A DNA stretch of 64,000 nt from Oceanispirochaeta sp. (GCA_963663385.2 CAXXXD010000004.1:256001-320000); one strand, 5' to 3'; positions 41,421 through 57,777 are shown, numbered from the stretch's first letter. Numbers and translations are program-made. The notes: a model not told the origin generated them from the letters alone.

Positions 41421-41471
41421 AGAGGGGTCAAGGAGCTGGATTTTAAGCCGATAATGACAGGGGGAGGATAC

Positions 41472-44324
41472 GTGAATTCCAAAAAAATTAAAAAGACTCT
41501 GGCTGGCGTACTGGCAACGGCGGCTTTCTTGCTCTTTATCCTATTAATCGCCGGAGCTTCGGGTGTGAAAAGGGGTCCGGGGTATTTCCTGTTCCAGTCC
41601 TTTCATCTGGCTTCATTTTATATACCCGTTTATCTGCTGATCTGTGCCTATGTGCTCCTGGCTGAAAAAAGCCATAAACTGTTGGCGGGACTGAACTTTT
41701 CACTTCTCCCTTTTTTAACCTTTACTCTGCTGCTGCATGTTCTGACAGGTAACCGGAGCATCCCTGTTTCAAGAGTTCTGGTTCTGGAAATCGGTAAATT
41801 TGTATCATCTCTCTTTCTTCTTCTGCTGCTGGGGGTGGAAGCGGCCCTGATTTATAGACTGTGTAATATTCTTTTCCCCCATGAGAAATGGATTCCCGAA
41901 ACATCCGCAGGATTTTATAAAATTCCCGGAAAGATCTTTTCTCTGAAAGAAACAGTAACCAGCTTCCTGTCACGCTCTCCATCAAACGAGGCCGAAGGAG
42001 AGGACCGGGAAGAGGAATCCGTTCCTGTTCAAAGGGAGGTTTTTCCCTTTCCGGATCTGCCGGCCCCTCCGGAGCCGGTGAAGGATGTGGATGACAGCGA
42101 AATCCAGTCCCTGATTTCATCGGTTCTCAACCCGAAGCCTTCTTTTCCGGAAAAAGCTGCTTTCGATCCGGTTCCCCTGGTGAAAAAAGAGGAGAAGAGG
42201 AGCTTTAATCCCGAGAAAACACTCAGTATCGACGAAGTAATGGAAAGAGAGGACCCCGTGAGGGCCTTCGATCCGGTTCCGGTTTCTGACCCGGGGATTG
42301 ATTTTCTGCTGAACCCGGTCGGGGATAAATCTGTCGCCGAAATGCCTGAGTCTGAAATTGGTGATAAGGAGCCCGTTTTCCGGGAATCCCGTGCTGTTTC
42401 CTCCGGATTATCCGGACCAATGGATTCTGATGAGCCTGATGATCCTTTTCAGGATTCTGAATACACCGAAGAGTTTGATTCCCCTGTTGAACATGAGCCT
42501 GCGGAATTCGGGACACCCCTGACTGAATCCGAACCGGAGGAGTCTGATGATCCGGACATCCCCGCCGGAAATGAAGAGTATGACTTTGAGGATGAACTGT
42601 CTGATTCAGAGGATGACGAGTATGAAAACTCCGGATACATCTCCGACCGGATGGATGAACTGGACTCCTGGCGTACCCCTTCTTTTCAGGAGGATGAACC
42701 TGTAATGGTGGAAGATCTGGATGATGCGGAGGATGAGGACTCTGCCTTTCCGGATGATTATGATGAGGAAACGGAATCTTCCTTTTCTATCGAAGCCAAG
42801 CTCAGCCCCGAAGGGGAGACAGAGAGAATGGGTATCGCGCCGAAAGGGCTTCCTCCCAGGCACCGCCGCTGGCAGAAGTATGAGGTTCCTGTAACTGGTC
42901 TGCTGAAGGAGTATCCCGATGAGGGGTTTGACCAGATTGATGAACATACACGACGGTCGGCCCGGGCGCTGGAAGAGACCCTTCTGGAGTTTAAAATCGA
43001 TGCTAAAGTAACGGGTATTTCCAAGGGGCCTGTTATTACCATGTTTGAAATTCAGCCGGCCCCGGGTGTAAAGGTCTCCCGCATTGTGAACCTTCAGGAT
43101 AACCTGGCTCTGCGTCTGGCTTCCTCCCGTATCCGTATTGTCGCTCCCATACCCGGCAAGCAGGCCATCGGTATTGAAGTTCCCAATAAGAAGCGCTCCA
43201 TCGTCTCTTTCAGTCAGCTGGCTTCTTCAGATGATTATACGGAAGGCGATTTCGAAATTCCCGTTATCCTGGGAAAGGATATCAGCGGTGGCAACCAGGT
43301 TATCGATCTGGCCCGGACGCCCCACCTGCTTATTGCCGGTTCCACCGGTTCGGGTAAATCGGTCTGTGTCAACTCTCTGATCTGTTCCATTCTGTTTCAG
43401 AAGTCTCCCCGGGATGTGAAGCTGATGATGGTGGATCCCAAGATTGTAGAGCTGAAGCTGTATAACGATATTCCCCACCTGCTCACACCGGTTATAACGG
43501 AGCCCAAACGGGCCTTTCAGGCGGTTCAGTGGTGTCTGTACGAAATGGAGAGGCGTTACTCCCTGCTGGATTCTATGGGAGTCCGGGATATCAAGAGCTA
43601 TAACAAGAGGATCAGGGAGAGGGATATTGCCACGACCAAGCTTCCCTATATTGTTCTCGTGATTGATGAGTTTGCCGACCTGATGGCAACCTCGGGCAAG
43701 GAGCTGGAGGGCATTGTGGCCCGCCTGGCGGCCATGTCCCGTGCGGTGGGGATTCACCTGGTTCTGGCGACCCAGAGGCCGTCTATCGATGTTATTACCG
43801 GTCTGATCAAGGCCAACTTCCCCTCCCGGATTGCCTTTATGGTGGCCAGCAAGACCGACTCCCGCATAATTATCGATATGATGGGGGCGGAAAAGCTGCT
43901 GGGCAAGGGGGATATGCTCTTTACCTCAGCCTGGGACCCCTTTCCCTCCCGAATGCAGGGGGCCTTCCTGTCCGAGGATGAGGTGGAGCGGGTTGTCTCC
44001 TATGTGAAGACACTGGGAGAGCCGGAATATATCGACGATGAGATTTTTCTGGATGAAGAGGATGAATACAGTAGTGACGGGGGAGGGGACAGTTCCTTCA
44101 GCGATCCATTGTACAACAAGTCTCTGGAAATAGTGATGCAGTCCGGGAAAGCTTCAGCTTCCTACCTTCAGCGGCGGCTGAAAATCGGTTACAACCGGGC
44201 GGCCCGGCTGGTGGAAGAGATGGAGATCCGCGGTATCGTGGGGCCCCAGAACGGTTCCAAGCCCCGGGAGGTTATCCATATCCCCGATATGCCGGGCAGC
44301 CGGGTGCTGAACGGGGAGGAGTAG
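41472..44324 (+). CDS. ftsK: DNA translocase FtsK
   Basis: PHLLIAGSTGSGKS, IDEFADLM, ATQRPS, LQRRLKIGYNRAAR; GTG after GGAGG. Confidence 0.96.
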   Translation: MNSKKIKKTLAGVLATAAFLLFILLIAGASGVKRGPGYFLFQSFHLASFYIPVYLLICAYVLLAEKSHKLLAGLNFSLLPFLTFTLLLHVLTGNRSIPVSRVLVLEIGKFVSSLFLLLLLGVEAALIYRLCNILFPHEKWIPETSAGFYKIPGKIFSLKETVTSFLSRSPSNEAEGEDREEESVPVQREVFPFPDLPAPPEPVKDVDDSEIQSLISSVLNPKPSFPEKAAFDPVPLVKKEEKRSFNPEKTLSIDEVMEREDPVRAFDPVPVSDPGIDFLLNPVGDKSVAEMPESEIGDKEPVFRESRAVSSGLSGPMDSDEPDDPFQDSEYTEEFDSPVEHEPAEFGTPLTESEPEESDDPDIPAGNEEYDFEDELSDSEDDEYENSGYISDRMDELDSWRTPSFQEDEPVMVEDLDDAEDEDSAFPDDYDEETESSFSIEAKLSPEGETERMGIAPKGLPPRHRRWQKYEVPVTGLLKEYPDEGFDQIDEHTRRSARALEETLLEFKIDAKVTGISKGPVITMFEIQPAPGVKVSRIVNLQDNLALRLASSRIRIVAPIPGKQAIGIEVPNKKRSIVSFSQLASSDDYTEGDFEIPVILGKDISGGNQVIDLARTPHLLIAGSTGSGKSVCVNSLICSILFQKSPRDVKLMMVDPKIVELKLYNDIPHLLTPVITEPKRAFQAVQWCLYEMERRYSLLDSMGVRDIKSYNKRIRERDIATTKLPYIVLVIDEFADLMATSGKELEGIVARLAAMSRAVGIHLVLATQRPSIDVITGLIKANFPSRIAFMVASKTDSRIIIDMMGAEKLLGKGDMLFTSAWDPFPSRMQGAFLSEDEVERVVSYVKTLGEPEYIDDEIFLDEEDEYSSDGGGDSSFSDPLYNKSLEIVMQSGKASASYLQRRLKIGYNRAARLVEEMEIRGIVGPQNGSKPREVIHIPDMPGSRVLNGEE

Positions 44325-44349
44325 GGCTGAGAAAAGATATGGAGGTTTC

Positions 44350-44717
44350 CTACCATTCTAACGGATCAATGATCTTTATATCTTCTACCTTTTTAAGATC
44401 TCTTTGTCTGCTGTAACCAGAGTCAGATCTTTTTCGATAGCGGTAGCCACGATAATTGCGTCGGGAATTTTCAGTCCATACTTTTTCCGGACGAAGATAG
44501 ACCGCTCAGTAATGTCTCCGTCTGTTTCAAACTCAATCAGGTCACTGACAAAACGTCGAATCATAAATTCCTGATCTTCATTATTCTTCCCGCAACTCAG
44601 CTCTATATGAGAAATAAAGGAGAGATATAATTCATCTTCAAAAGAAATCTTTTCAAAGAGAGGGAAAATGCCTTCAAGGCAGTATACAACAGCGTTGGTA
44701 TCCAACAGATATCTCAT
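44350..44717 (-). pseudogene. PIN-domain (VapC) toxin, C-terminus apparently lost by a 1-nt frameshift
   Basis: LLDTN, ISHIEL, DAIIVATA, LVTAD; stop at 44385; an alternative frame continues KVEDIKIIDPLEW* to 44350. Confidence 0.7.
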
Positions 44718-44959
44718 CTGTTATCCCATTCTTTTCGTAATTTCCTCTGGTATTCGACTCCATCGACACCCCAACCTTTTAATGATCCCTGAAGCGCCTT
44801 AAGTCTTTTAAAGCGGGCTTTTCTGTCTTCAGTACCTTTCGGGCGAACGATGATTGTTACATCCTGAGGATCAAGAGGAAGATCTTTATCCTCGATCACC
44901 AGGTGATGATTCTGGTCGATACGTCCTGATAACTCATAATTTTCCATTTCCAATGACAT
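44714..44959 (-). CDS. Putative antitoxin of the PIN toxin
   Basis: 81-aa ORF with RBS, ATGA-coupled to the PIN gene; ends DGVEYQRKLRKEWDNR. Confidence 0.75.
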   Translation of the reverse strand: MSLEMENYELSGRIDQNHHLVIEDKDLPLDPQDVTIIVRPKGTEDRKARFKRLKALQGSLKGWGVDGVEYQRKLRKEWDNR

Positions 44960-45109
44960 ACTTGTTCCCCTTGGGTCCTTTAACATTAATATATCACTTT
45001 TACACCTGTTCTTACAGGATGGCTTCAAACATGTTACATTATTATTTACAGTTCGCTGTAAGCGCAAGCCCACTCCTGCGGTCGTTAAGAGGGACATACG
45101 TTGTTTTTT

Positions 45110-45270
45110 TCAGAACCGGAGCCACGACGGCGGAGGGGCGGCCTGCGGTACCTGCCGGAAAGACTTCTTCAACGTGAAATGTTATTCCGGCGAAAAATGA
45201 AATTGGGAATCATAACAAGAATGTTGCTGCCGTTTCCCTTCGGTCACAGCAGAACAATGGTGTTATGAAT
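45110..45270. repeat. ~160-bp direct repeat copy A with terminal attC-like hairpin (45210-45268)
   Basis: First 109 bp differ from 54237-54345 at 12 positions; ends TCATAAC...GTTATGA. Confidence 0.9.
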
Positions 45271-45272
45271 AA

Positions 45273-45593
45273 CTAAATCTCTTTGATAGTGGACTTGGAA
45301 GGACTGCTCCAAGATATTTTTTTATATTTACCTTTAATCTTTCCTTTTTCGCGATATTCCTCAAACTGCTCGGAAGGACTCCAGTCTTTACCAGCAGAAA
45401 AATACACATCCAAATCGTTTAACTTAATAAATTTTTCAATTTTATCTTCTGTATCAGAATATGGTATAGACCAATATTCTGGGTAATCACTATCTATACT
45501 TGCTTCTAATTCCAATAGTTTTGTTTCAAAAGATTTTGTGACATTTTTTATATATATCTTATCAGTTACAAAAACAACATATGGATTAATCAT
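45273..45593 (-). CDS. Putative immunity protein for Rhs-CT2
   Basis: AT-rich small ORF directly after the toxin; GGAGG RBS. Confidence 0.7.
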   Translation of the reverse strand: MINPYVVFVTDKIYIKNVTKSFETKLLELEASIDSDYPEYWSIPYSDTEDKIEKFIKLNDLDVYFSAGKDWSPSEQFEEYREKGKIKGKYKKISWSSPSKSTIKEI

Positions 45594-45607
45594 CGATTTA
45601 TTCCCTC

Positions 45608-46594
45608 CTATCTTGTTGGAATTGAATTAATAATCATTTCTGGTCCTCCACCGGGAAGTCCTTTTCCTCCACCTTGAAAGAACTCATTTCCACCAGCAAT
45701 AGGACTTCTTGGAGCCATCTCTTTTATACCAGAAACTTCAGTAATTCTAAATCCATTCCCTAAGGTCCCGGGATTAAGGCCTAATACTTTCTCCAATGCC
45801 ACACCTTGCTGTTTTGAATTAAAAGAACCAGGAGAGAAGTTCCCTATTGCACCTGTAAGCGCTTTTTTATCTGTTATATAAGTTCCAGAACGCCCAATGG
45901 AATCAAATTCTTTAAACCATGATTCAGGAGATACGTTATATCCGACGTTCATTTCTAACATATTTTGCTGTCTAGATGTAAAGAGATTTTTTAGTGAAGG
46001 GTTATTAAAAACACTATCTGCATTAAGGCCACCCACTCCCAGCATACATAGATCAAGAAAGGTTCCGACTGCTAGTGACTTAGCATCTCCTGGGGGTAAA
46101 TATTCTCCATTGGGTCCGTGATAACCAGAATCCCAACCATTTGTCATTCCATTAACAAGTGCACCAACGCCAAGCCCCATATCATAAAGTAGCTTTTCAA
46201 ACGGTCCAAGTGCTGGCATATAACCACTAGCTTGTGGCCCTGCCGGTGTTACTTCTCCTAAGTTCTCTGGAGCTAATGGATCATTGGGTTTATCATCACC
46301 ATCGTCGTCATCATCTTTCTCTATAGGTCGTTTAGAATCTGAATCATATTCACCAGATTCTTCACTAGATAATCCAAAGATCAACCCCGTCGGATCTACA
46401 TATTTAATAGGATTGTTCGAGGTGTAAACATACCAGTTTTGCCCGTCTCTAGCCGGATCTTCAGATATAAATCTCCCCGTATCCGCATCATACCACCTAG
46501 CATTGTAGTAATAATCACCCTCTCCCCCTAAATCGTTGCAAAAAGGAGACCTGCAAGGAGGCGTTGAAACTGGAATTTCTCTAGTAGCTGTCAT
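45608..46594 (-). CDS. Orphan Rhs core plus C-terminal toxin (CT2), N-terminally truncated
   Basis: YYYNARWYDADTGRFISEDP...NNPIKYVDPTG followed by a variable tip; no RBS seen at the annotated start. Confidence 0.85.
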   Translation of the reverse strand: MTATREIPVSTPPCRSPFCNDLGGEGDYYYNARWYDADTGRFISEDPARDGQNWYVYTSNNPIKYVDPTGLIFGLSSEESGEYDSDSKRPIEKDDDDDGDDKPNDPLAPENLGEVTPAGPQASGYMPALGPFEKLLYDMGLGVGALVNGMTNGWDSGYHGPNGEYLPPGDAKSLAVGTFLDLCMLGVGGLNADSVFNNPSLKNLFTSRQQNMLEMNVGYNVSPESWFKEFDSIGRSGTYITDKKALTGAIGNFSPGSFNSKQQGVALEKVLGLNPGTLGNGFRITEVSGIKEMAPRSPIAGGNEFFQGGGKGLPGGGPEMIINSIPTR

Positions 46595-46611
46595 GGTACG
46601 TTAATAAACTA

Positions 46612-47631
46612 TCATTTACCTATCTTACGGGCAAGCGCTTTTCTATTCTTCTCTCTTTGCTTCAGACTGTCCCGAACCAGAGTTTCCAGTGAATCAAGAT
46701 AGGAGTCGGTCACCTCGGCGAAATGGAAATTCTCCCTGGGATGGTACTGCCTGTAGGAAGCCTTGATGTTCTCTTCGCTTTGCCGGGAGTAAACCACCGT
46801 GGTTTCCACCGATTCATGCCCCAAAAGCTCCTGAACATAGCGGATCTCCGCCCCGTGGGCCAGAAGATGGGAAGCACAGCCGTGCCGGAGGGAGTGGACG
46901 GTCAGCCCTTTCCGGTAGAGTCCGCACTTTTCACTCAGCAGTTTAAACCGTTTGTTGATCCCTCCGTGAGTAAACCGGTAGCCCCCGGAAAGGATCAGAG
47001 GCCTGTGGTGTGCTTTCACGCCTTCCAGATACTTATCCAGAAACCAGGCGGCCGCCTTGGTCACTGGGACCCGGCGGTCCTTGGAAAACTTGCTCTGGTG
47101 GATCCACAATAACCGGCTGGCCGGATCGTAATCTTTCACATCCAGATGGGCCGCTTCGGAAGACCGGAGACCGGAAGAGTAAATCAGTTCAAACAGGGCC
47201 CTGTCCCGGAGCCCCAGGGGCTGGTGAATATCGATGGAATCCAGAAAGAGTGCGGTCTCGTCCTCACTCAAAACTTCTTTGATCCGCTCCTGCCGTTTCC
47301 CGAAGCGGACTGTCTCCACCGGTGAGGACAAAACCAGGTTGTTTTCATACAAACAGAGATAGAACTTTTTCACGGAGGTGAAAATACTCATCCTCGTTGA
47401 GTCCTTGTAGCCCCGTCCTCTCTCTCCGGGATGCTCCTGCAGCCAGGAAAGGAAGGAGACAATATCACTCCTTTTCACATCCCGGATGTCTTTCGTGCCA
47501 GTTTCATCCAAAAAGGTAAAGAAGGGGGTAAGCTGAGCTTTCTTTGTCCGAATAGTTCCCTCTTTAAATCCCTGGGCCTTCAGGTATCCGGCGAAAAGGG
47601 AAAGGGCTTTCTGCCTTGAGAGTCTTTTCAT
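46612..47631 (-). CDS. Tyrosine recombinase (XerD-like) 2
   Basis: SSGLRSSE, SKFSKDR, HSLRH, LLGH, TVVY; start reassigned to the ATGA overlap at 47631. Confidence 0.92.
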   Translation of the reverse strand: MKRLSRQKALSLFAGYLKAQGFKEGTIRTKKAQLTPFFTFLDETGTKDIRDVKRSDIVSFLSWLQEHPGERGRGYKDSTRMSIFTSVKKFYLCLYENNLVLSSPVETVRFGKRQERIKEVLSEDETALFLDSIDIHQPLGLRDRALFELIYSSGLRSSEAAHLDVKDYDPASRLLWIHQSKFSKDRRVPVTKAAAWFLDKYLEGVKAHHRPLILSGGYRFTHGGINKRFKLLSEKCGLYRKGLTVHSLRHGCASHLLAHGAEIRYVQELLGHESVETTVVYSRQSEENIKASYRQYHPRENFHFAEVTDSYLDSLETLVRDSLKQREKNRKALARKIGK

Positions 47632-48674
47632 CTCCTTTTTCCCAGCTGTCTGGGATGGTGGCGGTCCAGCTGCTCCTTTACCTCTTTCACATCCACTTTG
47701 GTGTAAATCTCGGTGTTCCCGATGGCCCGGTGCCCCAGGATCTGCTGAATCTGCCTCAAGGGGCAGCCTTGTTTCAGAAGATGGTAGCCCAGACAGTGCC
47801 GGAGGCTGTGGGCTGTCATAAAAGGAATTCCGACTTCTTCGCAAGCCTCTTTCAGATCCCTGTTGAAAGCCTTTCCCAGTTCATCCGAGGAAGAGCCGAA
47901 AAGCCTTTCCCTGTTGCTCTTGCCGGTCAGGATCTCATCCCGAACGGTTAGAAACCGCCTTAATACACTGGCGGCGTAGTCGTTCAGGTAGACCTTCCGG
48001 TCGAATCCTCCCTTGCCGGAGATAACGGTGATCTCTTTCCTTTCAAGATTCAGGTTCTCTTCCTGAAGGTCAGCCGCTTCGCTGATTCGGAGGCCCGAGG
48101 CGTAAAGCAGCTCGGCCAGCACATGGGTCAAATACCGCCTTTTCCGGGCTTTCAGTCCCTTCACGGCAGAGAAGTCCGCCAGACGGGAGAGAAGCCGGGC
48201 CAGTTCTTTCTCCATGGGTAAATCCCTGGGAATGATCCTTTCACCCCGGGGAGCTTTGACGGCGGTAAAGGGATCGGAAACAAGCTTTCCCGAATCCCTC
48301 ATCCACCGGCTGAAGGAGGAAGCGGCCTGACGGTAGGAAGCCAGGGTGTTTACCCTGTAGTCTTCTCCGCTTCCGGTTCCCCGTTCTGTAAGGTGTGCCA
48401 TGAAGCCTCTGGCCGCCCGGATGTCCGTCTGATCCGCCGTCAGTCCTTCTTCTTCCAGATAGGCCAGAAAATGGGGAATCCGGCTGTGGGCGTTCCGGAG
48501 AGCCTGGGAAGAAGCTCCCAGGGCTTTTTTCTCTTCCAGATAGCTGTCTAGCAGGGTTTGATGGGCTTTATGTATGTTTCCTGCGCTTCCGGACACTTCC
48601 CTTCGGGAAGTTCCTGCCGCTTTATGAGAAAAGGAACCCTGACGCTCTCGCGTCAGCCTTTTATCATTATTCAT
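47628..48674 (-). CDS. Tyrosine recombinase (XerC-like) 1
   Basis: ASGLRISE, GKGG, HSLRH, ILGH, TEIY. Confidence 0.92.
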   Translation of the reverse strand: MNNDKRLTRERQGSFSHKAAGTSRREVSGSAGNIHKAHQTLLDSYLEEKKALGASSQALRNAHSRIPHFLAYLEEEGLTADQTDIRAARGFMAHLTERGTGSGEDYRVNTLASYRQAASSFSRWMRDSGKLVSDPFTAVKAPRGERIIPRDLPMEKELARLLSRLADFSAVKGLKARKRRYLTHVLAELLYASGLRISEAADLQEENLNLERKEITVISGKGGFDRKVYLNDYAASVLRRFLTVRDEILTGKSNRERLFGSSSDELGKAFNRDLKEACEEVGIPFMTAHSLRHCLGYHLLKQGCPLRQIQQILGHRAIGNTEIYTKVDVKEVKEQLDRHHPRQLGKRR

Positions 48675-48800
48675 GCTCTGTCTCTCTCCGGGATTTTGTA
48701 CCCACTTTCTCCTAAACCTTTACCGGATTTAACTTTAAGCCGAATAGTCGGCCTGTACCCGGTTTTCCCACTTTCGGCTAATCCCTTACCAGAACAACAA

Positions 48801-51461
48801 TTATTGTTTTTCATCATTCCGTACCCGCTTTGTACCCGGTTCCCTGGTTAAATGGTCAGGTGAAGGAATCACCGAGTCATCGAAAAGAACTAGGTCAGAA
48901 TCAGCCGCCAGTCCGTAACGCCTGGTCATACCCCGGCCCGATCCTTTGCTCCGGATGTATTCATACTCTGTCAAAAGCCTCATATTCTTCTTGATCAGCT
49001 CATGGGAGAATCCGGAGACCTCCCGGATCTCCCGCTGGGTCACCCAGATATCGGTCAGGAATAGCCCGTCCTTCTCCGCTTTGCTTTTAAGAAGATCCCG
49101 GAGCTCCTCATACAAAATGACAGCCGAACGGGGTAAAGTGGTCATGGTGGAAGAAAGCAGGGTCTTCATGATCCGGTAAGCCACCTTGTAGTCTTCCAGG
49201 TCGCACTCTATGTAATGCTTCCCCTGATCATTCTTCTCCTGTTTCTGGTACTGCCTCAGGAAGCACACGCAGGCAATGAGGTCTACAAACCGTTCATGGT
49301 CCCGCCGGCTCCGCATCATGGAAGAGGGAAAGTCCAGCTCCCCGGCGAAAGGATTAACAATTACCCGGTTTTTCAGGAGCCTTTGGGCGGCCTGGTGGGT
49401 CTTAATGATTTCCGGGAGATCTTCTTCCTTCTTCCGGTAGGCTTCCAGGGTGTACTTCTCCCTCTGCCTCCGGTGGATCTCCCTGGTCTGCTCCCGGCTC
49501 TCGTCTGTGTTTACCACAAAGCAGCGGGAGGCGTTCTCCGGGTTGATCTCCGTCGAAGTGGAGGACATCACGGCGGAAACAATGACTTTTTTCCGTACCA
49601 GCTTGCTGGTCATTCTTCCGGTCTTCTCATCCTTGGTGGTCACCAATCGGGACAGCTCTTTTCCGGATAACATCTCCCGCATCTGATGATCTACGCTCTC
49701 CGAGTGGACCGCCTCTCCCATGACCAGAAACTTGTGCAGCAGAGCTTCATCGGGAAGGTAGTTCAAGGCCTGGTCGGAAAGGCTGGTCATGGAAATCACA
49801 TCCTCTTCGGGCATCAGCTTTTTTACCGTATCGATCAGAAAGCTTTTACCAGCGGCGGACTGGGAGATGACGATTACGCTTACCGGATCGGCCATCAGAC
49901 GGGAGGAGGCGGCCAGGTACATAAGGATCTTGTTTTCCTCCTCTCCCACGTAGCCCAGAGCTTCCGTATCCCTGACAATCCTGTCGAAAAGATTGGGATC
50001 CTGTAAAAGGGAGAGGCCAGCTGCCTCTTCCTCAGGGGTCAAAGACCCCTTCTTTAAACCGGTATCCGAAAGGGCCCGTTCAGACTCTTCTTCCAAATAG
50101 TCCAGGATATCCAGTAAATCCTTTTCAATCCTGGCGGATTCCTCGCCGAACCGGCGAGCGACCGCGACAGAGAAAAGGGTCCGGCTCCGGGCGGAGAAGA
50201 GGTCTACATTGTCGATGAACTTGACAGTATCATCCGCCGGCCTCTGACAGCGGACATTCACCTTCAGGGAACTGACAAATCCTTCTTTAACTCCGATGAT
50301 CCGGTAATCCAGAGAAGAACAATGAAACAGGTACTTACCATCGGCCACCAGTGGCCTTTTATCACCCTCCGGCGGTTTCAGAATGCTGCTCTCGATCAGG
50401 GATAGAACTTGTTCCTTTGTGATTTTTGGTAATGACTCATTCCAGTCCTTGGAAGGCGGGAAGATGGTTCTGACGGCAATACCCTTTTCGAAAAGAGTTT
50501 TTCCGACCTTTTCTGCAGCCTCCCGGCCCGCTTCATCACCGTCGAAAGCAAGGACAACTTCCTTTGTACGGTTTTCTTTCAAAGCTTCTACAAGGTGACT
50601 GGTCACCCCGTTGGCGCCGTAAGAGCAGGAAACATTTTCGCATCCCAAAACCATCAGCGAAAAGGCATCAATCACCGATTCTGTCAGGATCATCCGGTCC
50701 GGGTAAACCTTGAATGCCTGGTGGTTAAACAGGCCCCGGTGGGGCCCTTTCAAATAAAGGTGTTTCACCCTGGACCTTTCATTTATCTTCCTGCCGTAAA
50801 ATCTCCGGACTTTCCCATCGGAAGAATAGAGTGGGAAAACAATGCAGTCCCGGAAGGTTTCAAGGTTCTTTTCCGTAAAGAGGCCCGCCTCTTTCAGCTC
50901 CTGAAACTGGACTTCGGACAGTTTGTCTTTCAAGTCTCCGGGGCAGTAGCCGACTTTCAGCCGTCCCAGAAGCTCCGGAGCATAGATCCCCCGTTTTTTC
51001 AGGTAGGAAACTGCTTCCGGATGGGAGAGCTGACGGTGATAGTAATCCGTTACATCTTCCAATGAGGTTGTTTTAAGCAGAGGTTCGCCCTCCAGTGGCA
51101 CCGGCGGAGCCGGTACCTCCTTCGGCCTGAATGCCTTTCCCTCATCTCCTTTCAAGATAGCCAGAGCCTCTTTAAACTCCACGCCCTGGTGCCTCATCAC
51201 AAAGTCAAACACATCCCCGCCGGCCCCGCAGCCGAAACAGTGAAACAGTCCCTTGGACTGGTCCACCGAAAGAGAAGGATTCTTGTCCTCATGGAAGGGG
51301 CACAGCCCCATGAAAGAAGAGCCTTTCTTCTCGAGAGAGATACCATAGGAGGTAATCACACTGACTATATCGGTTTGTGCCTTGATCCGGTCTTTTTCAA
51401 ACTCGTCCAGCAGGGAAGCCCCCTTCAAAGGGCTCCTGCCTTTCAGCTTTGAAGAAGTCAT
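48801..51461 (-). CDS. DnaG-like primase (CHC2 Zn finger + TOPRIM) fused to a P-loop NTPase domain
   Basis: CPFHEDKNPS...HCFGC; ESVIDAFS; FDGDEAG; SQSAAGKS; ATGA overlap with the parA stop. Confidence 0.9.
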   Translation of the reverse strand: MTSSKLKGRSPLKGASLLDEFEKDRIKAQTDIVSVITSYGISLEKKGSSFMGLCPFHEDKNPSLSVDQSKGLFHCFGCGAGGDVFDFVMRHQGVEFKEALAILKGDEGKAFRPKEVPAPPVPLEGEPLLKTTSLEDVTDYYHRQLSHPEAVSYLKKRGIYAPELLGRLKVGYCPGDLKDKLSEVQFQELKEAGLFTEKNLETFRDCIVFPLYSSDGKVRRFYGRKINERSRVKHLYLKGPHRGLFNHQAFKVYPDRMILTESVIDAFSLMVLGCENVSCSYGANGVTSHLVEALKENRTKEVVLAFDGDEAGREAAEKVGKTLFEKGIAVRTIFPPSKDWNESLPKITKEQVLSLIESSILKPPEGDKRPLVADGKYLFHCSSLDYRIIGVKEGFVSSLKVNVRCQRPADDTVKFIDNVDLFSARSRTLFSVAVARRFGEESARIEKDLLDILDYLEEESERALSDTGLKKGSLTPEEEAAGLSLLQDPNLFDRIVRDTEALGYVGEEENKILMYLAASSRLMADPVSVIVISQSAAGKSFLIDTVKKLMPEEDVISMTSLSDQALNYLPDEALLHKFLVMGEAVHSESVDHQMREMLSGKELSRLVTTKDEKTGRMTSKLVRKKVIVSAVMSSTSTEINPENASRCFVVNTDESREQTREIHRRQREKYTLEAYRKKEEDLPEIIKTHQAAQRLLKNRVIVNPFAGELDFPSSMMRSRRDHERFVDLIACVCFLRQYQKQEKNDQGKHYIECDLEDYKVAYRIMKTLLSSTMTTLPRSAVILYEELRDLLKSKAEKDGLFLTDIWVTQREIREVSGFSHELIKKNMRLLTEYEYIRSKGSGRGMTRRYGLAADSDLVLFDDSVIPSPDHLTREPGTKRVRNDEKQ

Positions 51462-52264
51462 AGACCGCACCGGGATAAAAGTTCATTCCCCAGAGCCCTT
51501 ACTTCCTCCGCGGGCCTTTTCCATTGGTTACCGGACAGCTGGACCAGGCCCTTCCTCTCGGCAATGGCTTCCTCGATCCGGATCGACCGGCTGATCACGG
51601 TCTCAAAACAGGTTTCTCCGAAGAACCCGGTCAGTTCGGCTTTCAGCTCCCGGCCGATCAGGGTAACCGGGTTGTAGCTGTTAAGGACGACTCCCAGGGC
51701 GTAAAGAGTCGGGTTCAGGCTCCGCCTGATCTTCTCCATGGTTTCCAGAAGGTCCGAAGCTCCCTGCAGGGCGTACTGACTGGCTGTAATGGGCATCACA
51801 AGGTGATCGGCGGCTACAAGGGCATTGCCCGTGAGGATTCCCAGGGAAGGGGGAGTATCCATCAGGATAAAATCGTAGGATTCGAACTCCTCCCGTTCGA
51901 AAAGCTCCTTAAACCGTACATAGCCGTCGAACTCTCCCACAAGCTGTTTTTCCAGCAGGCTGAGATAGATCGATCCGGAAAGGATCTCAAGATTCTCACT
52001 GACACTTTGAACGTGAATTTCATCTTCTGTAATGGCCTCGTACAGTCCTTTTCCCGGCTGGTCGAAGAAACTTCTGGAAAGGTTGCCTTGGCTGTCACAG
52101 TCTACCAGAAGGGTTTTCAGCCCTTTATCATGGGCCAGGTAACAGCCCAGTTCTCTTGTCATGGTGGTCTTGCCGACCCCGCCTTTCTGGTTGGTAAATA
52201 CGATCTTTTGGCGACTAAGAATGGGGCCCTGATGCTTTGCATCACCCATTTTATCTAGATTCAC
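51458..52264 (-). CDS. ParA/Soj family ATPase
   Basis: NQKGGVGKTT, VDCDSQGN, DTPPSLG. Confidence 0.92.
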   Translation of the reverse strand: MNLDKMGDAKHQGPILSRQKIVFTNQKGGVGKTTMTRELGCYLAHDKGLKTLLVDCDSQGNLSRSFFDQPGKGLYEAITEDEIHVQSVSENLEILSGSIYLSLLEKQLVGEFDGYVRFKELFEREEFESYDFILMDTPPSLGILTGNALVAADHLVMPITASQYALQGASDLLETMEKIRRSLNPTLYALGVVLNSYNPVTLIGRELKAELTGFFGETCFETVISRSIRIEEAIAERKGLVQLSGNQWKRPAEEVRALGNELLSRCGL

Positions 52265-52517
52265 ACTGGGCCTCCTCTTCCTTCTTCCAGAGGAGGTTCC
52301 GGATCACTTCCAGAGTCTCGGGGATCTTCTTCAAAGGAGTCCGGCAGGTACCCAGAAAAAGTTTACGGTCTCCGGTAATGTTCTCTCCTTCCAGAGTGAA
52401 AACCATCTCCTGGGCTCCCAGGGTTCCCATGCTCAGGTAAACATCGACCAGCCGGTGGTGCTGATCCAAAAGGTAGGCGACTTCGGCCAGGTTGGCTGTT
52501 ATGAGGCTGTCTTTCAC
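52251..52517 (-). CDS. Small hypothetical protein (DUF5659-like, paralogue 2)
   Basis: GTG start overlaps the upstream stop; TANLAEVAYLL...FTLEG resembles the neighbouring ORF. Confidence 0.6.
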   Translation of the reverse strand: MKDSLITANLAEVAYLLDQHHRLVDVYLSMGTLGAQEMVFTLEGENITGDRKLFLGTCRTPLKKIPETLEVIRNLLWKKEEEAQCESR

Positions 52518-52798
52518 TGGTGGCCCCCTTTCATGCTTTTCCGGTAGTCCCGCTTGGCATTGTTGGCGTAGTTGTTGATCTCTCCGTAACAACGGCGGAA
52601 GAGAACCAGATTGACAACCGCTTCACTTCTCAAAAAGTCGCTTTGAAGATGAGGAATGACTTCTCCTTCGAAGTAGAAGTCGCAGATGATATCTTTGGTG
52701 ACGTTCCCGGCCAGAAGGCGGCAGGTAACCAGGTGGGGCGTTACCCCTTTAGTCAGGTAGTAGGCGGCCTCGTACAGGTCGCTGGTGCGGATTTCCAT
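52514..52798 (-). CDS. Small hypothetical protein (DUF5659-like, paralogue 1)
   Basis: TSDLYEAAYYL...FYFEG; GGAG RBS. Confidence 0.65.
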   Translation of the reverse strand: MEIRTSDLYEAAYYLTKGVTPHLVTCRLLAGNVTKDIICDFYFEGEVIPHLQSDFLRSEAVVNLVLFRRCYGEINNYANNAKRDYRKSMKGGHQ

Positions 52799-52869
52799 TC
52801 TTTACTCCATCGGAAGGAGCAGAACGGCATTTGCGGGGATAAGAATTTATGGTAGAATTGTAAGTGCAT
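52753..52869 (-). CDS. Putative 38-aa upstream ORF/leader peptide
   Basis: GGAG-9nt-ATG; MHLQFYHKFLSPQMPFCSFRWSKEWKSAPATCTRPPTT*; overlaps the next gene out of frame. Confidence 0.4.
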   Translation of the reverse strand: MHLQFYHKFLSPQMPFCSFRWSKEWKSAPATCTRPPTT

Positions 52870-52941
52870 GGAGTTCTACTCCTATGTTGTTTTTAAGCCT
52901 GTTTCCCGAAGGTCGCCAAACACTCGGAAACGGGCTTTTTT
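52864..52941 (+). ncRNA. Putative ~78-nt cis-antisense RNA (SymR-like layout)
   Basis: Extended -10 TGGTAGAAT (52850-52858); covers the uORF ATG and RBS; ends in hairpin AAGCCTGTTTCC...GGAAACGGGCTT plus T-run. Confidence 0.55.
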
Positions 52942-52992
52942 ATTGCCAACGGCAATATTTCAAAAGTGTGTCAAGTAGCATTTGACTGTTTA

Positions 52993-53021
52993 ATAATGAC
53001 ACATCATGTATCACTCGTCAA
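52993..53021 (-). promoter_or_regulatory. Putative promoter of the element operon with an overlapping palindromic operator
   Basis: TTGACG-17-CATTAT; TGACACAT-C-ATGTATCA at 52997-53013. Confidence 0.5.
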
Positions 53022-53041
53022 GTTATATGATAAGATAAATC

Positions 53042-53437
53042 ATGCCTCAAGTACCGAAGAAAGAATTACCCCCTTTAAAAATCAGTGACAAAAGCATTGG
53101 TGAAATCATTGCCAAAATAAGAAAACAGAGAGGACTTACACAGCTTGAATTGGCTGAAACAATTGGCATTACAAGAACCGCATTATCTGCCTATGAAAGC
53201 GGAAGAGTCCGACTTTATGATGAAATGATAGCAAGATTCGCCATTGCTCTGAATGTCTCGACTGACACTCTTTTCGGGCTGAAGGATGAAAATATTCTTG
53301 CACAGGATACAAATCTGAAACTTACAAAACGCCTGAAAGAACTGGAAGAACTCCCACCGGCAGACCAAAAAAAAATCCTTGAGCATATCAAGGATTTGAG
53401 AGCCATGAATGAATTAAAGGAAAATCAATCCAAATAG
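53042..53437 (+). CDS. XRE family HTH repressor
   Basis: IRKQRGLTQLELAETIGITRTALSAYESG; divergent from the element operon. Confidence 0.92.
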   Translation: MPQVPKKELPPLKISDKSIGEIIAKIRKQRGLTQLELAETIGITRTALSAYESGRVRLYDEMIARFAIALNVSTDTLFGLKDENILAQDTNLKLTKRLKELEELPPADQKKILEHIKDLRAMNELKENQSK

Positions 53438-53489
53438 ATATTCTTTCGATATCCGGCTATTACAAAGAGAATGAGAAACCTAACCCTGC

Positions 53490-53783
53490 TTACTGCTTAC
53501 TGCATTCCATATTCATCTCTTTTCGAAGTAAATCATTCAGCAAAGTCTGATACCCTTTACCATGACTTTTTAGCCAAAGAAGAATGTCCGCATCGATTCG
53601 GGTGGTTATCTGCTCTTTCCTGGGCTTGTAAATATCGTGAAAAGGGACGGCCCTGGAAAAATCCTCATCAGACCACTCTTTTATGTCACTGGTATCTATT
53701 TCGGAGTCGGGTAATTCGGCAAGCTTGGCGAGTCTTGCCTTTGTGTCTTCATCCATAGGACTAAAACCATTTTCCTGCTTCAT
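53490..53783 (-). CDS. brnA: BrnA antitoxin
   Basis: IDTSDI, ITTRIDADIL.WLK..GKGYQT. Confidence 0.88.
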   Translation of the reverse strand: MKQENGFSPMDEDTKARLAKLAELPDSEIDTSDIKEWSDEDFSRAVPFHDIYKPRKEQITTRIDADILLWLKSHGKGYQTLLNDLLRKEMNMECSKQ

Positions 53784-54048
53784 ACTTCCTCCTCTCTGCC
53801 GTTGTTGCTTTTCGGGCAGATATTATTCTGAAAACGTCTTCATCCTGCTGATCTCTCATGGTGTAAACCACAAGCACCAGCAGAATGCCGCCGATATGCC
53901 CCATAATTTGCTGACGGGGCTCTGAATCCGTGTAATCCTCACGAACCAGGGCAAACGGGTCGGCAAAAACATACTTGGCGTCTTTGAATGACAATCCGTG
54001 TTTCTTCTGGTTGATTATGTCTTTTTCTTTATCCCATTCAAAGGTCAT
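53761..54048 (-). CDS. brnT: BrnT toxin (DUF497)
   Basis: FEWDKEK..N..KHGLSF...RIISARKAT..ER..Y. Confidence 0.92.
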   Translation of the reverse strand: MTFEWDKEKDIINQKKHGLSFKDAKYVFADPFALVREDYTDSEPRQQIMGHIGGILLVLVVYTMRDQQDEDVFRIISARKATTAERRKYEAGKWF

Positions 54049-54054
54049 AATATA

Positions 54055-54083
54055 ATTATACTATTGTAACTACATTTTTGCAA
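54055..54083 (-). promoter_or_regulatory. brnTA promoter (likely leaderless) with palindrome TGTA-AC-TACA
   Basis: TTGCAA-17-TATAAT, 6 nt before ATG; palindrome 54065-54074 in the spacer. Confidence 0.75.
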
Positions 54084-54236
54084 TTATGATAAAAAGAGAA
54101 AACACTCCGCCAGCTCCTGTATAAAATTATTCTGGAATCTATAAACTTACCACTAAAAGCAGGTGAACAGAGAATTCGTTATATGGCGAAGCGGACAGCT
54201 GCCAGGGACGGCAGCTGCAGATAACGGATTTTCTGA

Positions 54237-54396
54237 TCAGAACCGGAGCCACGACGGCGGAGGTTCGGCCTGCGGTTACTGCCGGAAAAGCTTTTTCAAC
54301 GTGAAATGTCATTCCGGCGAAAAATAAAATTAGGGGTCATAACAACAGTGCTGCACCAGACAGGCAAGCCTGCAGGTGAGCATGGACGTTATGAAT
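54237..54396. repeat. ~160-bp direct repeat copy B with terminal attC-like hairpin (54337-54394)
   Basis: Homologous to 45110-45270. Confidence 0.9.
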
Positions 54397-54858
54397 TTAC
54401 GGAATGTGAGAAAAAGCATCTTTAAAGGTTTTATTCTTATAATCCCAATTAAATGTCTTAGTATCTCCTACAGAATTTCCAGAGGCAAAATAAGGAGTTA
54501 AAACTATACCCGGAGAATATTCTTTATTATTTGGGTAAGACAATTTCATCTTAAATCCATAAAAGATTAACTCATGATTCTTAAATGATATCAAGATTTT
54601 CCCTGTTGCATCTTCAAGTATATCATCATGAAAATAAATTACATGATCCCGATTAATATCAGACTTCAGAACACCTATGAAGCTTTCACATATGTCTGAA
54701 TCAGAATAATAATCAGTGTAAATCTGAACAATGTCATCATCTATTATTAATTCGAAGTCAGCAGACTTTTTATTTAATAATATTATATCATCAGAAAATA
54801 TTACTGATGAAAATAAAAGGATTTGTACTGTTATTAGAAAAATATTCCTCAATCCCAT
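54397..54858 (-). CDS. Putative periplasmic immunity protein for Rhs-CT1
   Basis: AT-rich; overlaps the toxin 3' end; signal-peptide-like MGLRNIFLITVQILLFSSVIFS. Confidence 0.7.
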   Translation of the reverse strand: MGLRNIFLITVQILLFSSVIFSDDIILLNKKSADFELIIDDDIVQIYTDYYSDSDICESFIGVLKSDINRDHVIYFHDDILEDATGKILISFKNHELIFYGFKMKLSYPNNKEYSPGIVLTPYFASGNSVGDTKTFNWDYKNKTFKDAFSHIP

Positions 54859-55712
54859 AAAATATAACCCCAATTGTAGTTTTTATTTATCTTTTTCTTT
54901 GCATATTGATCTAAGAAGCCATTTTCAACCATATTAATTTTACCAGCATTTGATGATGGATGAACTTCTCCTGCTTCTGTAACTGTCGTAACATGATCGT
55001 AAACACCATCACCATCCCAATCATAAAAGTTTTGAGAACCCACTCCACCATTTCCCGGTTTCAGTAGGTTAGGATCATTGGCCATTTCATCAGCAGTTCG
55101 ATCACCAATACCAACACCACTTACTGTTTCAGCTGAAATCATAGATGTCGAAGAACAGTCTAATCCTTGTCCTTCAGGTGATGGAGTTTCTCCACCAGAA
55201 TGATAATTACCACCTACAAACGATTTCGCTGTTTCGGCCAAACCATTGTTAAGGATTTCATCAACCGTTTCAGATATTTCATCATATGCAGCTTCAGTTA
55301 TATTATCCATTATCTCATCTTCAACTGCTTGAATCTGTTCATTAAGCCGATCTATATTTCGGTCATTATCCATACCGGAATTAATCAGATCATCTTTTTT
55401 ATCTTTAAGATCATTTCTTCGATCTTCTCTGCCTTGTGCATCTCTTCTATCTTTTCTATCGCTTTTCTTTTTTTCATATTCCGTATTTCTCTGCTCTCGA
55501 TCTCTTTCATCATCAGCACTATCGCCATCAACACGGCGCATTCCTGTAGGATCGACAAATTTTAGAGGGTTGTTTGATACATAATTGAACCAGTTTTGGC
55601 CGTCTCTAGCCGGGTCTTCCGATATAAACCTTCCGGTCCCCGCATCATACCACCGTGCATTGTAGTAATAGAGTCCGGTATCTTCATCCAGATCCTTTCC
55701 GGTATATTTCAT
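54849..55712 (-). CDS. Short Rhs core plus NlpC/P60-like C-terminal toxin (CT1)
   Basis: YTGKDLDEDTGLYYYNARWYD...VDPTG; tip Y.SGG...GLDCSS...DHV...HPSS. Confidence 0.85.
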   Translation of the reverse strand: MKYTGKDLDEDTGLYYYNARWYDAGTGRFISEDPARDGQNWFNYVSNNPLKFVDPTGMRRVDGDSADDERDREQRNTEYEKKKSDRKDRRDAQGREDRRNDLKDKKDDLINSGMDNDRNIDRLNEQIQAVEDEIMDNITEAAYDEISETVDEILNNGLAETAKSFVGGNYHSGGETPSPEGQGLDCSSTSMISAETVSGVGIGDRTADEMANDPNLLKPGNGGVGSQNFYDWDGDGVYDHVTTVTEAGEVHPSSNAGKINMVENGFLDQYAKKKINKNYNWGYILWD

Positions 55713-57049
55713 TACTTCTCTTGGGATTTACGCTCGGTTTCCTCTTTTCTCTGTTCAGCCATCTCACTGATCCTGCGGGCAAATTCGGGGAAGCGACCCA
55801 GAATCTGGTCGAAGGTTTCCTTGTCGATGGAGTAGCAGTCGCAGTACTCCCTGGCCTTGATGGTGGCGTTACGGGGGGCGCTGAAGAGAAGGGCAATCTC
55901 CCCGAAGAACGAGCCGGCGCCCAGGGTGGCATAGACAATTTTTTCGTCTTCCGAAACAACATCAACCGATCCCCGGCTGATAAAGTACATCTCGTAGCCT
56001 ATCTCACCCTTGATCACCACATAGTCTCCAGGCGTAAAGACAACCGGCTGCAGGTTCAGGATAATGTCTTTAATAAACTCTTCCGACGTCCCCTGAAAGA
56101 GGGGTACCTTCTGAATAATATCCCGGTTCAGAAAGAGGGAAACCGAAGTCTGAAGCGGTTTGGGCAGGTCCGTCAGGATGGATGATTCGTCATAGCCCCG
56201 GCGGCTCTCCCACAGGTAGTCGTAGTAGTCGTTTATCTTGTCCTTCAGGTCCGAGGGAATATGCTTGTACTTCATGAAGGTGGTGATTTTTTCCATCTTT
56301 TCCTGATACTGGGACTTGGCGATATCTATATTGGCAATGATATTGGCAATATTACCAATAATAAAACCGTACATACCGGCACCGATCAGCTCGACGATTA
56401 TAATAAATATTATCTGTGCATTGTTGGTCTGGTCCGGAGTGATATCACCGTATCCAATGGTCGTAAGCGTTGTAACCGTCCAGTAGAAGGATACAATATA
56501 GCGGTTCAGCCGGGTATTGTCTCCCAGGCCTCCGGTAATATAAATCCAGCCGCAGGAAATCAGATGAGCTGCGATGAGAATCCAGAAAATCAACAGAGCC
56601 ATCCGGATAAAACTCGGATTCATCTTTTTGTTGTTGCGGATCCGGCTGATCATCCTTCCTATACGGAAGAGCTTCACCAGCCTCAGCAGATTGGCGTAAA
56701 GCGCAATCTCCAGTATAAGGGGATGGTTGAACAGGGTCAGGACCATATACAGGGGGAGAGCCGCCACTATATCCAGGGGCAGGTCCCGTTTTCTGTATAG
56801 CTTGAAAATAATCTCTTTATTGTCGAAATACTCCCGCTGGTCGTAAAAGCCCGTATGGGATTCCAGATAGATATCGAGGATGAAGATCATGGAGATCAGG
56901 AAATCGAAAAGGAGAAGGCGTCCCCTCATGGGGATACGGAATACCGTAGTCAGGGGGACGATTATGGTAATAGTTATGGTCAATAACAGGATGAACGTAT
57001 CCCAGGCAATCTTTTTTCTGCTGTTTGGATTGATAATTTGAAATTCCAT
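55712..57049 (-). CDS. Cyclic-nucleotide-gated K+ channel (SthK-like)
   Basis: S4 LLRLVKLFR, filter TTIGYGD, C-linker, CNBD FFGEIALL...PRNAT. Confidence 0.92.
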   Translation of the reverse strand: MEFQIINPNSRKKIAWDTFILLLTITITIIVPLTTVFRIPMRGRLLLFDFLISMIFILDIYLESHTGFYDQREYFDNKEIIFKLYRKRDLPLDIVAALPLYMVLTLFNHPLILEIALYANLLRLVKLFRIGRMISRIRNNKKMNPSFIRMALLIFWILIAAHLISCGWIYITGGLGDNTRLNRYIVSFYWTVTTLTTIGYGDITPDQTNNAQIIFIIIVELIGAGMYGFIIGNIANIIANIDIAKSQYQEKMEKITTFMKYKHIPSDLKDKINDYYDYLWESRRGYDESSILTDLPKPLQTSVSLFLNRDIIQKVPLFQGTSEEFIKDIILNLQPVVFTPGDYVVIKGEIGYEMYFISRGSVDVVSEDEKIVYATLGAGSFFGEIALLFSAPRNATIKAREYCDCYSIDKETFDQILGRFPEFARRISEMAEQRKEETERKSQEK

Positions 57050-57174
57050 ATTAATTTATTATCGGAGAAGAGCCTTTTTATCTCCATTCTTTTTCATCAG
57101 AGCTTTATGGGAAATTCATAGTATGCTGTAATACAGTAAGGTTTATATTCATTTAAGCGGCAGGGAGAGGAAAA

Positions 57175-57690: not shown

Positions 57691-57697
57691 GAGCCAG

Positions 57698-57751
57698 AAA
57701 AAAACCGCCCTCCTCAGTACCCCGAGCGTAGTCGAGGGGGGAGGGGGCGGT
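57698..57751. repeat. REP-like repeat copy 3 within a terminator-like hairpin between convergent genes
   Basis: ACCGCCC...GGGCGGT stem enclosing CCCGAGCGTAGTCGAGGG; A-run gives a U-tract for pckG. Confidence 0.7.
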
Positions 57752-57777
57752 CCGATTATCAAGCTGAAAAGCTTAAA

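Follow-up and report, generated by a model that had tools for sequence, protein, structure and literature searches.

The 64,000-nucleotide stretch of an Oceanispirochaeta sp. genome analysed here (GCA_963663385.2, CAXXXD010000004.1:256001-320000; below, the window, in whose coordinates all unlabelled positions are given) carries at 46511-55667 a tyrosine-recombinase integrative element, which is bounded by short direct repeats and is present at several loci with different flanks. The repeats fall in the last codons of an Rhs core domain, and we think it likely that the 9,157-bp unit is a site-specific integrative element that uses part of an Rhs gene as its attachment (att) site.

An initial annotation of the window had pointed to a sequence shared by 46483-46513 and 55640-55670 (repeat D1). 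The repeat is present with a spacing of 9,157 bp, and forms the end of a wider similarity of 128 nt at 80% identity (46386-46513 and 55543-55670). On the minus strand D1 translates to YYYNARWYDA.TGRFISEDPARDGQNW..NNP.K.VDPTG, the end of the Rhs-associated core domain, and the similarity stops at the YYYN codons on the higher-coordinate side, the direction in which the stop claimed for it is borne out. The "two Rhs cores" of that annotation are real core-tip sequence (TIGR03696), but comprise only the last ~45-60 codons of the core and sit in short open reading frames (ORFs), neither of them in an Rhs gene. Likewise, what it called normal Rhs sequence upstream of the right copy reads as genuine Rhs, but amounts to 14 codons that abut the stop of a cyclic nucleotide (cNMP)-gated ion-channel gene. 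On each side of the element's backbone lies a cassette made up of a tip, a variable C-terminus (CT_R or CT_L), a putative immunity gene, a hairpin and a second repeat, D2. The parts of the two cassettes and the element ends are as follows.

55668-55712, minus strand: stub, ATG plus 14 Rhs-type codons (MKYTGKDLDEDTGLY...), the ATG overlapping the ion-channel stop (TAATG)
46511-55667, minus strand: integrative element, 9,157 bp including one core copy, 100% identical to the copy on contig C3
55657-55667, minus strand: 11-bp core, upstream copy (attL-like); identity between window and C3 ends at 55667
54849-55712, minus strand: stub-tip-CT_R ORF, 287 aa (TIGR03696 positions 18-76, E 5.6e-20), in which the toxin end of the element is fused in frame to the stub
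54397-54873, minus strand: putative CT_R immunity gene, 158 aa, signal-peptide-like N-terminus, assigned by position only
54225-54394, minus strand: 3' end of the CT_R cassette, hairpin 54337-54394 (TCATAAC...GTTATGA) and D2 54237-54354
46514-46611, minus strand: leader, element DNA from recombinase stop to core, with an in-frame ATG and 27 codons (MTATREIPV...GEGD) for the downstream tip
46500-46510, minus strand: 11-bp core, downstream copy (attR-like); three backbone copies are identical up to here, followed by CT_L, CT_X and CT_Y
45608-46594, minus strand: leader-tip-CT_L ORF, 328 aa (TIGR03696 positions 29-76), the displaced toxin end
45273-45593, minus strand: putative CT_L immunity gene, 106 aa, assigned by position only
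45110-45268, minus strand: 3' end of the displaced cassette, hairpin 45210-45268 and D2 45110-45227

Variable C-termini and small downstream ORFs are present at the tips; their toxin and immunity roles are putative. The C-terminal part of CT_R, the toxin part of CT_L and the CT_R immunity protein matched no Pfam (E up to 1) or NCBIfam family. An atlas search gave a weak lead to NlpC/P60-type amidases for CT_R (score 0.89-0.90) and nothing usable for the toxin part of CT_L. The G+C content of the cassettes (45273-46385 and 54397-55542) is 33-37%, against 51% for the backbone (46612-54048) and 48-52% for the neighbouring chromosomal genes.

Exact ends of the element at an 11-bp core

The core reads TACTACAATGC on the gene strand (GCATTGTAGTA on the plus strand) and lies within the YYYNA codons of the Rhs tip. 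This 11-mer occurs twice in the 64-kb window, both times at an element end. In 18 tips drawn from three genomes, neither AATGC nor GGTGGTATGATGC varies, even at synonymous positions. In exact comparison the window and the copy on contig C3 are 100% identical from 46500 to 55667 (9,168 bp), and at each end mismatches begin immediately beyond the 11-bp core, where the flanks are unrelated on both sides: upstream, the KYTGKDLDEDTGL stub by the channel gene in the window and GEIDAATGL in C3; downstream, CT_L in the window and CT_X in C3. A copy end at 46386 given by blastn (99.7% identity) was an extension through the 80% repeat, the exact comparison placing it at 46500. The 7,725-bp backbone (46500-54224) is 100% identical to that of the C3 copy, while the backbone on contig C2 is 99.97% identical to that of the window, with two gap openings and zero mismatches, and carries a different toxin/immunity cassette. 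At all three recombinase-side junctions a common leader and core are followed by divergence within one or two bases, and, with the two upstream-side junctions counted in, every one of the five has its crossover within one stretch of 11-12 bases. Homology of 80% extends for 128 bp next to these junctions but was left unused, and the other side is without homology. Five of five crossovers in 11-12 bases beside 128 bp of homology indicate site-specific rather than homologous recombination. The predicted excision product, in which the stub is joined to the displaced CT_L tip, reads in frame, as had been proposed at the outset.

The window lies on contig C4 of a genome of four contigs (98% complete), which contains seven tips, all in open frames of 278-330 aa, and eight copies of D2. 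Every tip scores above the TIGR03696 cut-off and every match is partial (positions 2-76 to 29-76). The C2 backbone runs off its contig end, and because this end overlaps the C3 end in the opposite sense, the two contigs are probably continuous here, forming a tandem array with two elements and three cassettes.

Elements and Rhs genes in relatives

Homologues of the element's primase were found at 86-87% identity in another Oceanispirochaeta-labelled genome, at 57-60% in other spirochaetes, at 26-36% in Elusimicrobia, Opitutia, Bacteroidales and one proteobacterium, and at 28-49% in metagenome contigs. A recurrent gene order was seen in these relatives: Xre on the opposite strand, primase, recombinase(s) and tip. 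We assessed the 16 loci with a full-length primase homologue that have enough sequence past the recombinase (other contigs end too soon), and at 13 of them, from several phyla, a tip follows the last recombinase (L016, L017, L018, L019, L023, L030, L051, L104, L105, L106, L152 and L164, with L157 below the cut-off). The same leader stands before all six recombinase-proximal tips of two other same-genus genomes (two each at L016 and L017, one each at L097 and L105). The NTPase half of the primase protein is encoded in 8 of 201 sampled genomes of the class, the window genome included. Five of the other seven were tested for a tip, the remaining two being G185, apparently the same chromosome as G002 (primase coordinates match), and G037; a tip lies beside the element in three (G012, G116 and G166).

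The initial annotation had recommended searching other genomes for the same gene set beside Rhs cores, and the complete chromosome of the spirochaete G002 has it behind a full-length Rhs gene, with displaced tips. The 3,440-aa Rhs protein has a signal-peptide-like start and ends in ...DEDAQL-YYFNARWYD..., followed by a toxin domain and a small gene; behind it stand two homologous elements in tandem, each followed in turn by a leader-tip-toxin orphan. The Rhs part of the orphan behind the second element starts at YFNARWYD, as in the window. That behind the first element starts 17 residues later, at DGLLWY, a breakpoint also seen at L018. Other breakpoints lie near model position 54 (L157) and ~300-400 residues further up in the shell (L030, Elusimicrobia). 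L022 has 10 RHS-repeat stretches in an Rhs ORF no shorter than 2,898 aa, behind which immunity gene, Xre, primase and integrase come in the same order. A same-genus contig with a 3,418-aa Rhs open frame stops, after its toxin and immunity genes, exactly at the start of the TCATAAC hairpin, a position where a repeat would break the assembly.

At a second Rhs locus of G002 (L095, C1:3418000-3437999, 12576-15618), two orphan cassettes lie behind a 3,487-aa Rhs open frame. A D2-like segment stands before each of them, together with 200-250 bp that match (81-85%) the leader of the G002 element from the recombinase stop onwards. No recombinase/primase backbone lies between these cassettes, and the first orphan is split by a stop codon. 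The orphans look like non-autonomous cassettes inserted at the same core, which lends the system an integron-like character.

Two further observations concern these genomes. Two ORFs of 429 and 267 aa on the minus strand, which by eye look like a transposase and AAA ATPase pair, interrupt the first G002 element (L093+L094, local 17549-20878), and only residues 82-268 of its ParA are left. At L105 (G012:C2:1-14000) the flanking tips, at 984-1760 and 10147-10779, have identical N-terminal sequences, which suggests a tandem of the same element.

Proposed mechanism and competing explanations

In gene direction the element reads core, tip-CT_R, immunity gene, hairpin and D2, BrnTA, Xre, two small ORFs, ParA, primase-nucleoside triphosphatase (NTPase), RecB, RecA (both recombinase names are labels of this analysis) and leader. 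The backbone genes are these.

53761-54048, minus strand: BrnT (PF04365, E 4e-23)
53490-53783, minus strand: BrnA (PF14384, E 1e-15), forming a toxin-antitoxin pair with BrnT (53490-54048)
53042-53437, plus strand: Xre-type helix-turn-helix regulator (PF01381, E 4e-14), divergent from the other element genes
52251-52798, minus strand: two small ORFs, 113 and 94 aa, of no Pfam or NCBIfam family, conserved in the elements of relatives
51458-52264, minus strand: ParA-type partition ATPase (PF13614, E 4e-42; NF041546)
48801-51470, minus strand: primase (zf-CHC2, DnaG_N, Toprim) with a P-loop NTPase half, 889 aa (Pfam, NCBIfam)
47628-48674, minus strand: RecB, XerC/D-like tyrosine recombinase, 348 aa (PF00589, E 1e-30)
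46612-47631, minus strand: RecA, second XerC/D-like tyrosine recombinase (PF00589, E 1e-34)

This agrees with the gene list first drawn up for the interval, and the recombinase stop at 46612, placed there at about 100 bp from the left repeat, is 98 bp away from it. The likely start of RecA is the ATG at 47631, behind AGGAG and overlapping the RecB stop. The two recombinases are 26-29% identical to each other and have full catalytic domains (positions 2-170 and 19-170 of the 172 in PF00589). Against the XerC and XerD models they score 154-189 bits (cut-offs 330-335), RecB reaching 154 bits with both; these scores are below equivalog level and denote family-level resemblance only. The integron integrase model TIGR02249 gave 102 and 90 bits against a cut-off of 265, less than the XerC/D models. 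The position and strand of Xre are maintained in distant relatives. Among the element proteins no capsid, relaxase or conjugation family was matched (Pfam), as the initial annotation had supposed, nor was a packaging family. The element does not qualify as a phage satellite of the P4 or PICI (phage-inducible chromosomal island) kind, which would combine integrase and primase-helicase with genes for hijacking a helper capsid or occur in virus collections. In a viral contig collection all 15 matches covered the N-terminal primase only (at most query residues 21-333) and none was full length.

We propose the following route of insertion. In an excised circle the non-coding leader would adjoin the 11-bp core (the YYNA codons of YYYNARWYD) and the element's own last ~45 Rhs core codons, and this copy of the tip would be fused to a toxin domain and followed by its immunity gene. 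The two XerC/D-like recombinases, which presumably act on the core and are probably paired, would exchange strands within the core of any gene with the same tip. The toxin end of the element would then continue the reading frame of the sequence before it, which is a full-length Rhs in relatives and the 14-codon stub in the window, and the previous tip, toxin and immunity gene would be pushed behind the element, where the leader would provide a new in-frame start codon. Repeated insertions would build tandem arrays. While excised, the element might replicate and be partitioned as an episome through its primase-NTPase and ParA, and BrnTA might stabilise it; it is from the presence of the primase-NTPase and ParA genes that we infer self-replication. 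The circle may also move from cell to cell, and carriers may gain an advantage through killing or immunity.

In the window genome the proposed target is reduced to the stub. Its peptide begins M-KYTGKDLDEDTGL, and KYTGKDLDEDTGL stands directly before YYFN in the 3,418-aa Rhs open frame of the same-genus genome mentioned above; by this match the stub is genuine Rhs sequence. The RHS repeat (PF05593) had 0 matches in the window genome, and control genomes matched. Examined as a possible Rhs polymorphic toxin, the window has a partial core tip ending in DPxG and no YD-repeat shell. Six relatives of the same genus lack an 11.4-kb island (44325-55711): in them the gap from FtsK to the channel gene measures 21-198 bp (five) or ~1.4 kb (one) and holds no tip or cassette. 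The whole of 44325-55711 is therefore an insertion, including the CT_L cassette, the stub and, at the left end of the island, a VapBC-like pair:

44385-45097, minus strand: PIN-domain toxin (44385-44717; PF01850, E 7e-12) with a small upstream ORF

The original picture of an element that targets an Rhs core accordingly stands in part: the element ends at YYYN, brings its own tip, toxin and immunity gene, and leaves an earlier tip downstream, but neither the window nor the genome contains a resident Rhs core, the target being a 14-codon stub. A functional toxin switch, also part of that picture, cannot be claimed here, where there is no Rhs shell and where the stub and the displaced cassette (CT_L, the CT2 of the initial annotation) are both absent from the six relatives. 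The lineage seems to have lost its Rhs shell and to have kept the cassettes together with an apparently active element. Because the genome is without a shell, the cassettes probably serve only as immunity genes and as orphan toxin/antitoxin-like pairs.

Two side observations belong to this genome. A solo cassette at C1:280601-282933 keeps ~40 residues of true Rhs core upstream of its tip, and an 89-bp remnant (91%) of the Xre/BrnA spacer lies ~0.7 kb beyond its D2; it is probably a truncated former main rhs gene with a decayed element. Outside the island, a 41-nt G+C-rich repeat (41387-41427 and 57705-57745, 78% identity) follows two unrelated genes and may be a REP (repetitive extragenic palindromic)-like or terminator element.

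A case for a different att site comes from the cassette 3' ends. The D2 copies of the window (45110-45227 and 54237-54354) are 87% identical, and one lies behind each of the two immunity genes. Downstream of all immunity genes comes first a hairpin of 60-88 nt, whose base is always TCATAAC...GTTATGA, and then a D2 of ~120 nt; we read hairpin and D2 as the 3' end of the cassette. The hairpin comes in three different internal stem versions, each still pairing, and is 86-94% conserved in another species, above the neighbouring genes; further copies in the genome lie near C3:1644550, C2:1863595, C4:1138842 and C1:281321. No Rfam family was found for it, and the lone Rfam match in 44000-56000, a sub-threshold tfoR within the primase gene (24.5 bits against a threshold of 70), was taken as chance. 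There are two element types in the genome, whose otherwise identical backbones are common only up to 54226, beside D2; from there D2, hairpin, immunity gene and toxin all differ. The terminal cassette CT_Y retains ~60 bp of backbone-start sequence after its D2. All this could be accommodated if hairpin/D2 were the att site and the mobile unit consisted of backbone, leader and downstream tip cassette, adding silent orphans behind a resident D2. We nevertheless regard this as improbable. The CT_R cassette is 100% identical at two loci, with the identity ending at the core and not at D2, and so does not represent two unrelated "resident" cassettes as such a scheme would have it. Three identical backbones are followed by three tips that diverge at the core, so that a break at the core is needed anyway. 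The mapped crossovers are at the core, ~1.3 kb from the hairpin, and none is in the hairpin. The D2 copies, moreover, differ at many positions along their entire length, which fits homologous exchange better than a fixed crossover. Because the differences are spread in this way, exchange on the D2 side looks homologous, though a second specific site may exist there, and the sequence comparison marks D2 as a second breakpoint for cassette exchange between otherwise identical backbones. The 160-bp repeats (D2) had been mentioned initially as possible true ends of the element; with identity ending at the cores, they are not.

If the D2 side exchanges by homology, the same might be asked of the core side, such that RecA-dependent homologous recombination (RecA here in its usual sense) and segmental duplication between D1 and D2 would account for everything, the recombinases serving in dimer resolution. 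Recombination between main and orphan rhs genes has been documented (Koskiniemi 2014, PMC3967940), homologous excision and insertion through a circle have been proposed in a two-step model (Jackson 2009, PMC2935791), and XerC/D-like pairs are the classic dimer resolvases. Homologous crossovers would, however, be expected to scatter, whereas all five junctions lie in one 11-12-bp window at the edge of the 128-bp, 80% block. Nor would homology alone be expected to maintain the linkage of recombinase, leader and tip among elements with only 30-60% primase identity, or to break different lineages at different fixed points of the tip. We hold this explanation to have little chance of being right, no more than that of an att site at D2. 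Last, an ordinary island with its normal target elsewhere, carrying tip cassettes as cargo at both ends with the repeat as a by-product, is very improbable: the island does lie between FtsK and the channel gene in an interval that is empty in relatives, and three homologous loci have no tip after the recombinase, but the 100%-identical unit is bounded by cores and holds one cassette only, a second locus has different flanks on both sides, and the tip adjoins the recombinases at 13 of the 16 assessable loci.

A number of observations weigh against site-specific insertion at the Rhs core, the reading that we prefer. Inverted half-sites of the dif kind were not clearly evident beside the core when it was inspected by eye, and polishing of the assembly may have contributed to the identity of the repeat copies. 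The second breakpoint at 54226 means that not all exchange takes place at the core. Among the 16 assessable loci, no tip was found after the recombinase within 2.8 kb at L022 (blastn, tblastx and TIGR03696, with no displaced tip after the integrase), 1.2 kb at L125 or 0.9 kb at L153. G127 and G142, which are fragmented and have weaker primase homologues, contained no tip at all, and the same-genus genome G012 contained, by open-frame length, no full-length Rhs, its largest tip-bearing open frame being 450 aa. The window genome has no full-length Rhs, yet its element copies are identical and seemingly recently active; the benefit proposed for the element cannot apply in these two genomes. The proposed mechanism also leaves unexplained how a first att-bearing stub arrived in the interval between FtsK and the channel gene. 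Neither product of excision was recovered: contigs from four public runs, which drop rare forms, had no stub-CT_L join and no leader-CT_R join, and terminal overlap was seen in 0 of 20 metagenome contigs with a full-length primase. Because contigs drop rare forms, this search for the circle and the empty site neither supports nor refutes the model.

The public-run contigs bridge CT_L to backbone (45413-46529) and core to channel gene (55638-58120), and one spans exactly 46500-54224. Contigs of a run under a second organism label (X5) have other sequences joined exactly at 46511-46513, one of them with ...FEGSS before the tip, like the G002 element leader, which hints at a further element type in that strain. 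A run under a third label (X8) has the channel-gene flank (55682-58500) with 2 differences in 2.8 kb on a contig that ends at 55682, and no CT_R cassette among its contigs; this close strain may hold another cassette at the stub junction.

Known systems and significance

Displacement of Rhs C-termini and the resulting orphan arrays have been described before (Jackson 2009, PMC2935791; Poole 2011, PMC3150448; Koskiniemi 2014, PMC3967940). Jackson 2009 treats tip displacement and proposes homologous excision and insertion through an episomal circle; its authors noted that no integrase was known to accompany Rhs. The arrays of these reports resemble the present element in that a new tip, toxin and immunity gene come in where the core ends, their predecessors persisting downstream as strings of orphans, and in that the tip differs from the rest in G+C content. 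They differ in the exchange itself, as those models invoke homologous recombination with orphans keeping variable lengths of core, while the element has its own recombinases and one fixed 11-bp site. Accordingly, the orphans of the element carry a non-Rhs leader, and those of the displacement models, as described there, carry core sequence.

As in an integron, a tyrosine recombinase would stack cassettes at one fixed site, the newest behind the expression signals; backbone-less cassettes occur (the second Rhs locus of G002), and an imperfect hairpin with AAC...GTT at its base closes each cassette. The recombinases of the element travel with the cassette, whereas that of an integron resides on a fixed platform; they are not of the integron-integrase class, the site lies within codons so that insertion yields a protein fusion, and no crossover was placed in the hairpin. 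Integrative elements and prophages are known to insert into the 3' ends of genes for tRNA, transfer-messenger RNA (tmRNA) and proteins, carrying a replacement 3' end. The present element shares with them an att region that copies the 3' part of the target, so that the gene stays open, and short identical flanking cores; it differs in that the replacement end is not equivalent, being another toxin with its immunity gene, and in having two recombinases and no capsid or transfer genes. In shufflons (R64 PilV/Rci), short conserved sites within a coding sequence allow a tyrosine recombinase to change the C-terminal segment of the protein. Shufflons invert resident segments, whereas the element would integrate and bring new segments from outside. 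The rAID-1 systems of Bacteroidales, reportedly described by Ross in 2019, are said to be recombinase-linked immunity islands. XerC/D genes have also been noted beside polyimmunity loci (Zhang 2012, PMC3482391), and integrase-like genes near Rhs loci of bee-gut bacteria, their role being left for further work (Steele 2017, PMC5727410). In these cases, too, Xer-like or integrase genes adjoin toxin/immunity cassettes, and the authors suspected cassette capture; unlike the present analysis, the portions of these reports used here give no attachment site, boundaries or toxin-gene fusion. In the literature covered, which did not extend to subscription journals, we found no report of an element whose att site lies in the Rhs tip. 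We conclude that the element belongs among tyrosine-recombinase integrative elements and Rhs displacement arrays and is not a new category.

More broadly, and tentatively, since we give it slightly less than an even chance, the element may represent a cross-phylum family of Rhs-tip cassettes, integron-like with an insertion site internal to codons, that comprises autonomous 8-9-kb forms and cassettes mobilised in trans. Autonomous versions would carry the paired Xer-like recombinases, primase-NTPase and ParA, and backbone-less cassettes (tip, toxin, immunity gene, hairpin and leader) would be moved by them in trans. Each insertion would create a new in-frame toxin fusion, supply the immunity gene that goes with it, and leave the old tip as an orphan started by the leader. 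Where the host has a full-length Rhs, carriers would kill element-free kin and the element would in this way spread itself through populations; where the host has no Rhs, the element would survive as an island of immunity and addiction. Lineages of the family would have been retargeted to different fixed points of the tip or the shell.

Rhs toxins are among the most widespread bacterial weapons, and displacement of their C-termini by way of a still unknown circle has been the explanation of their diversity since 2009. The element is a candidate for this carrier, with recombinases of its own, possible replication and partition genes, an exact 11-bp target in the tip, and in-frame delivery of a toxin together with its immunity gene. 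How Rhs toxin ends are swapped thereby becomes directly testable with two proteins and a 30-bp site, and a pair of recombinases able to swap C-termini precisely and in frame could have practical use. If the proposal is right, this would be one of the rare mobile elements whose attachment site makes insertion rewrite the functional end of a host protein, with kin killing, strain incompatibility and the spread of immunity genes as possible consequences.

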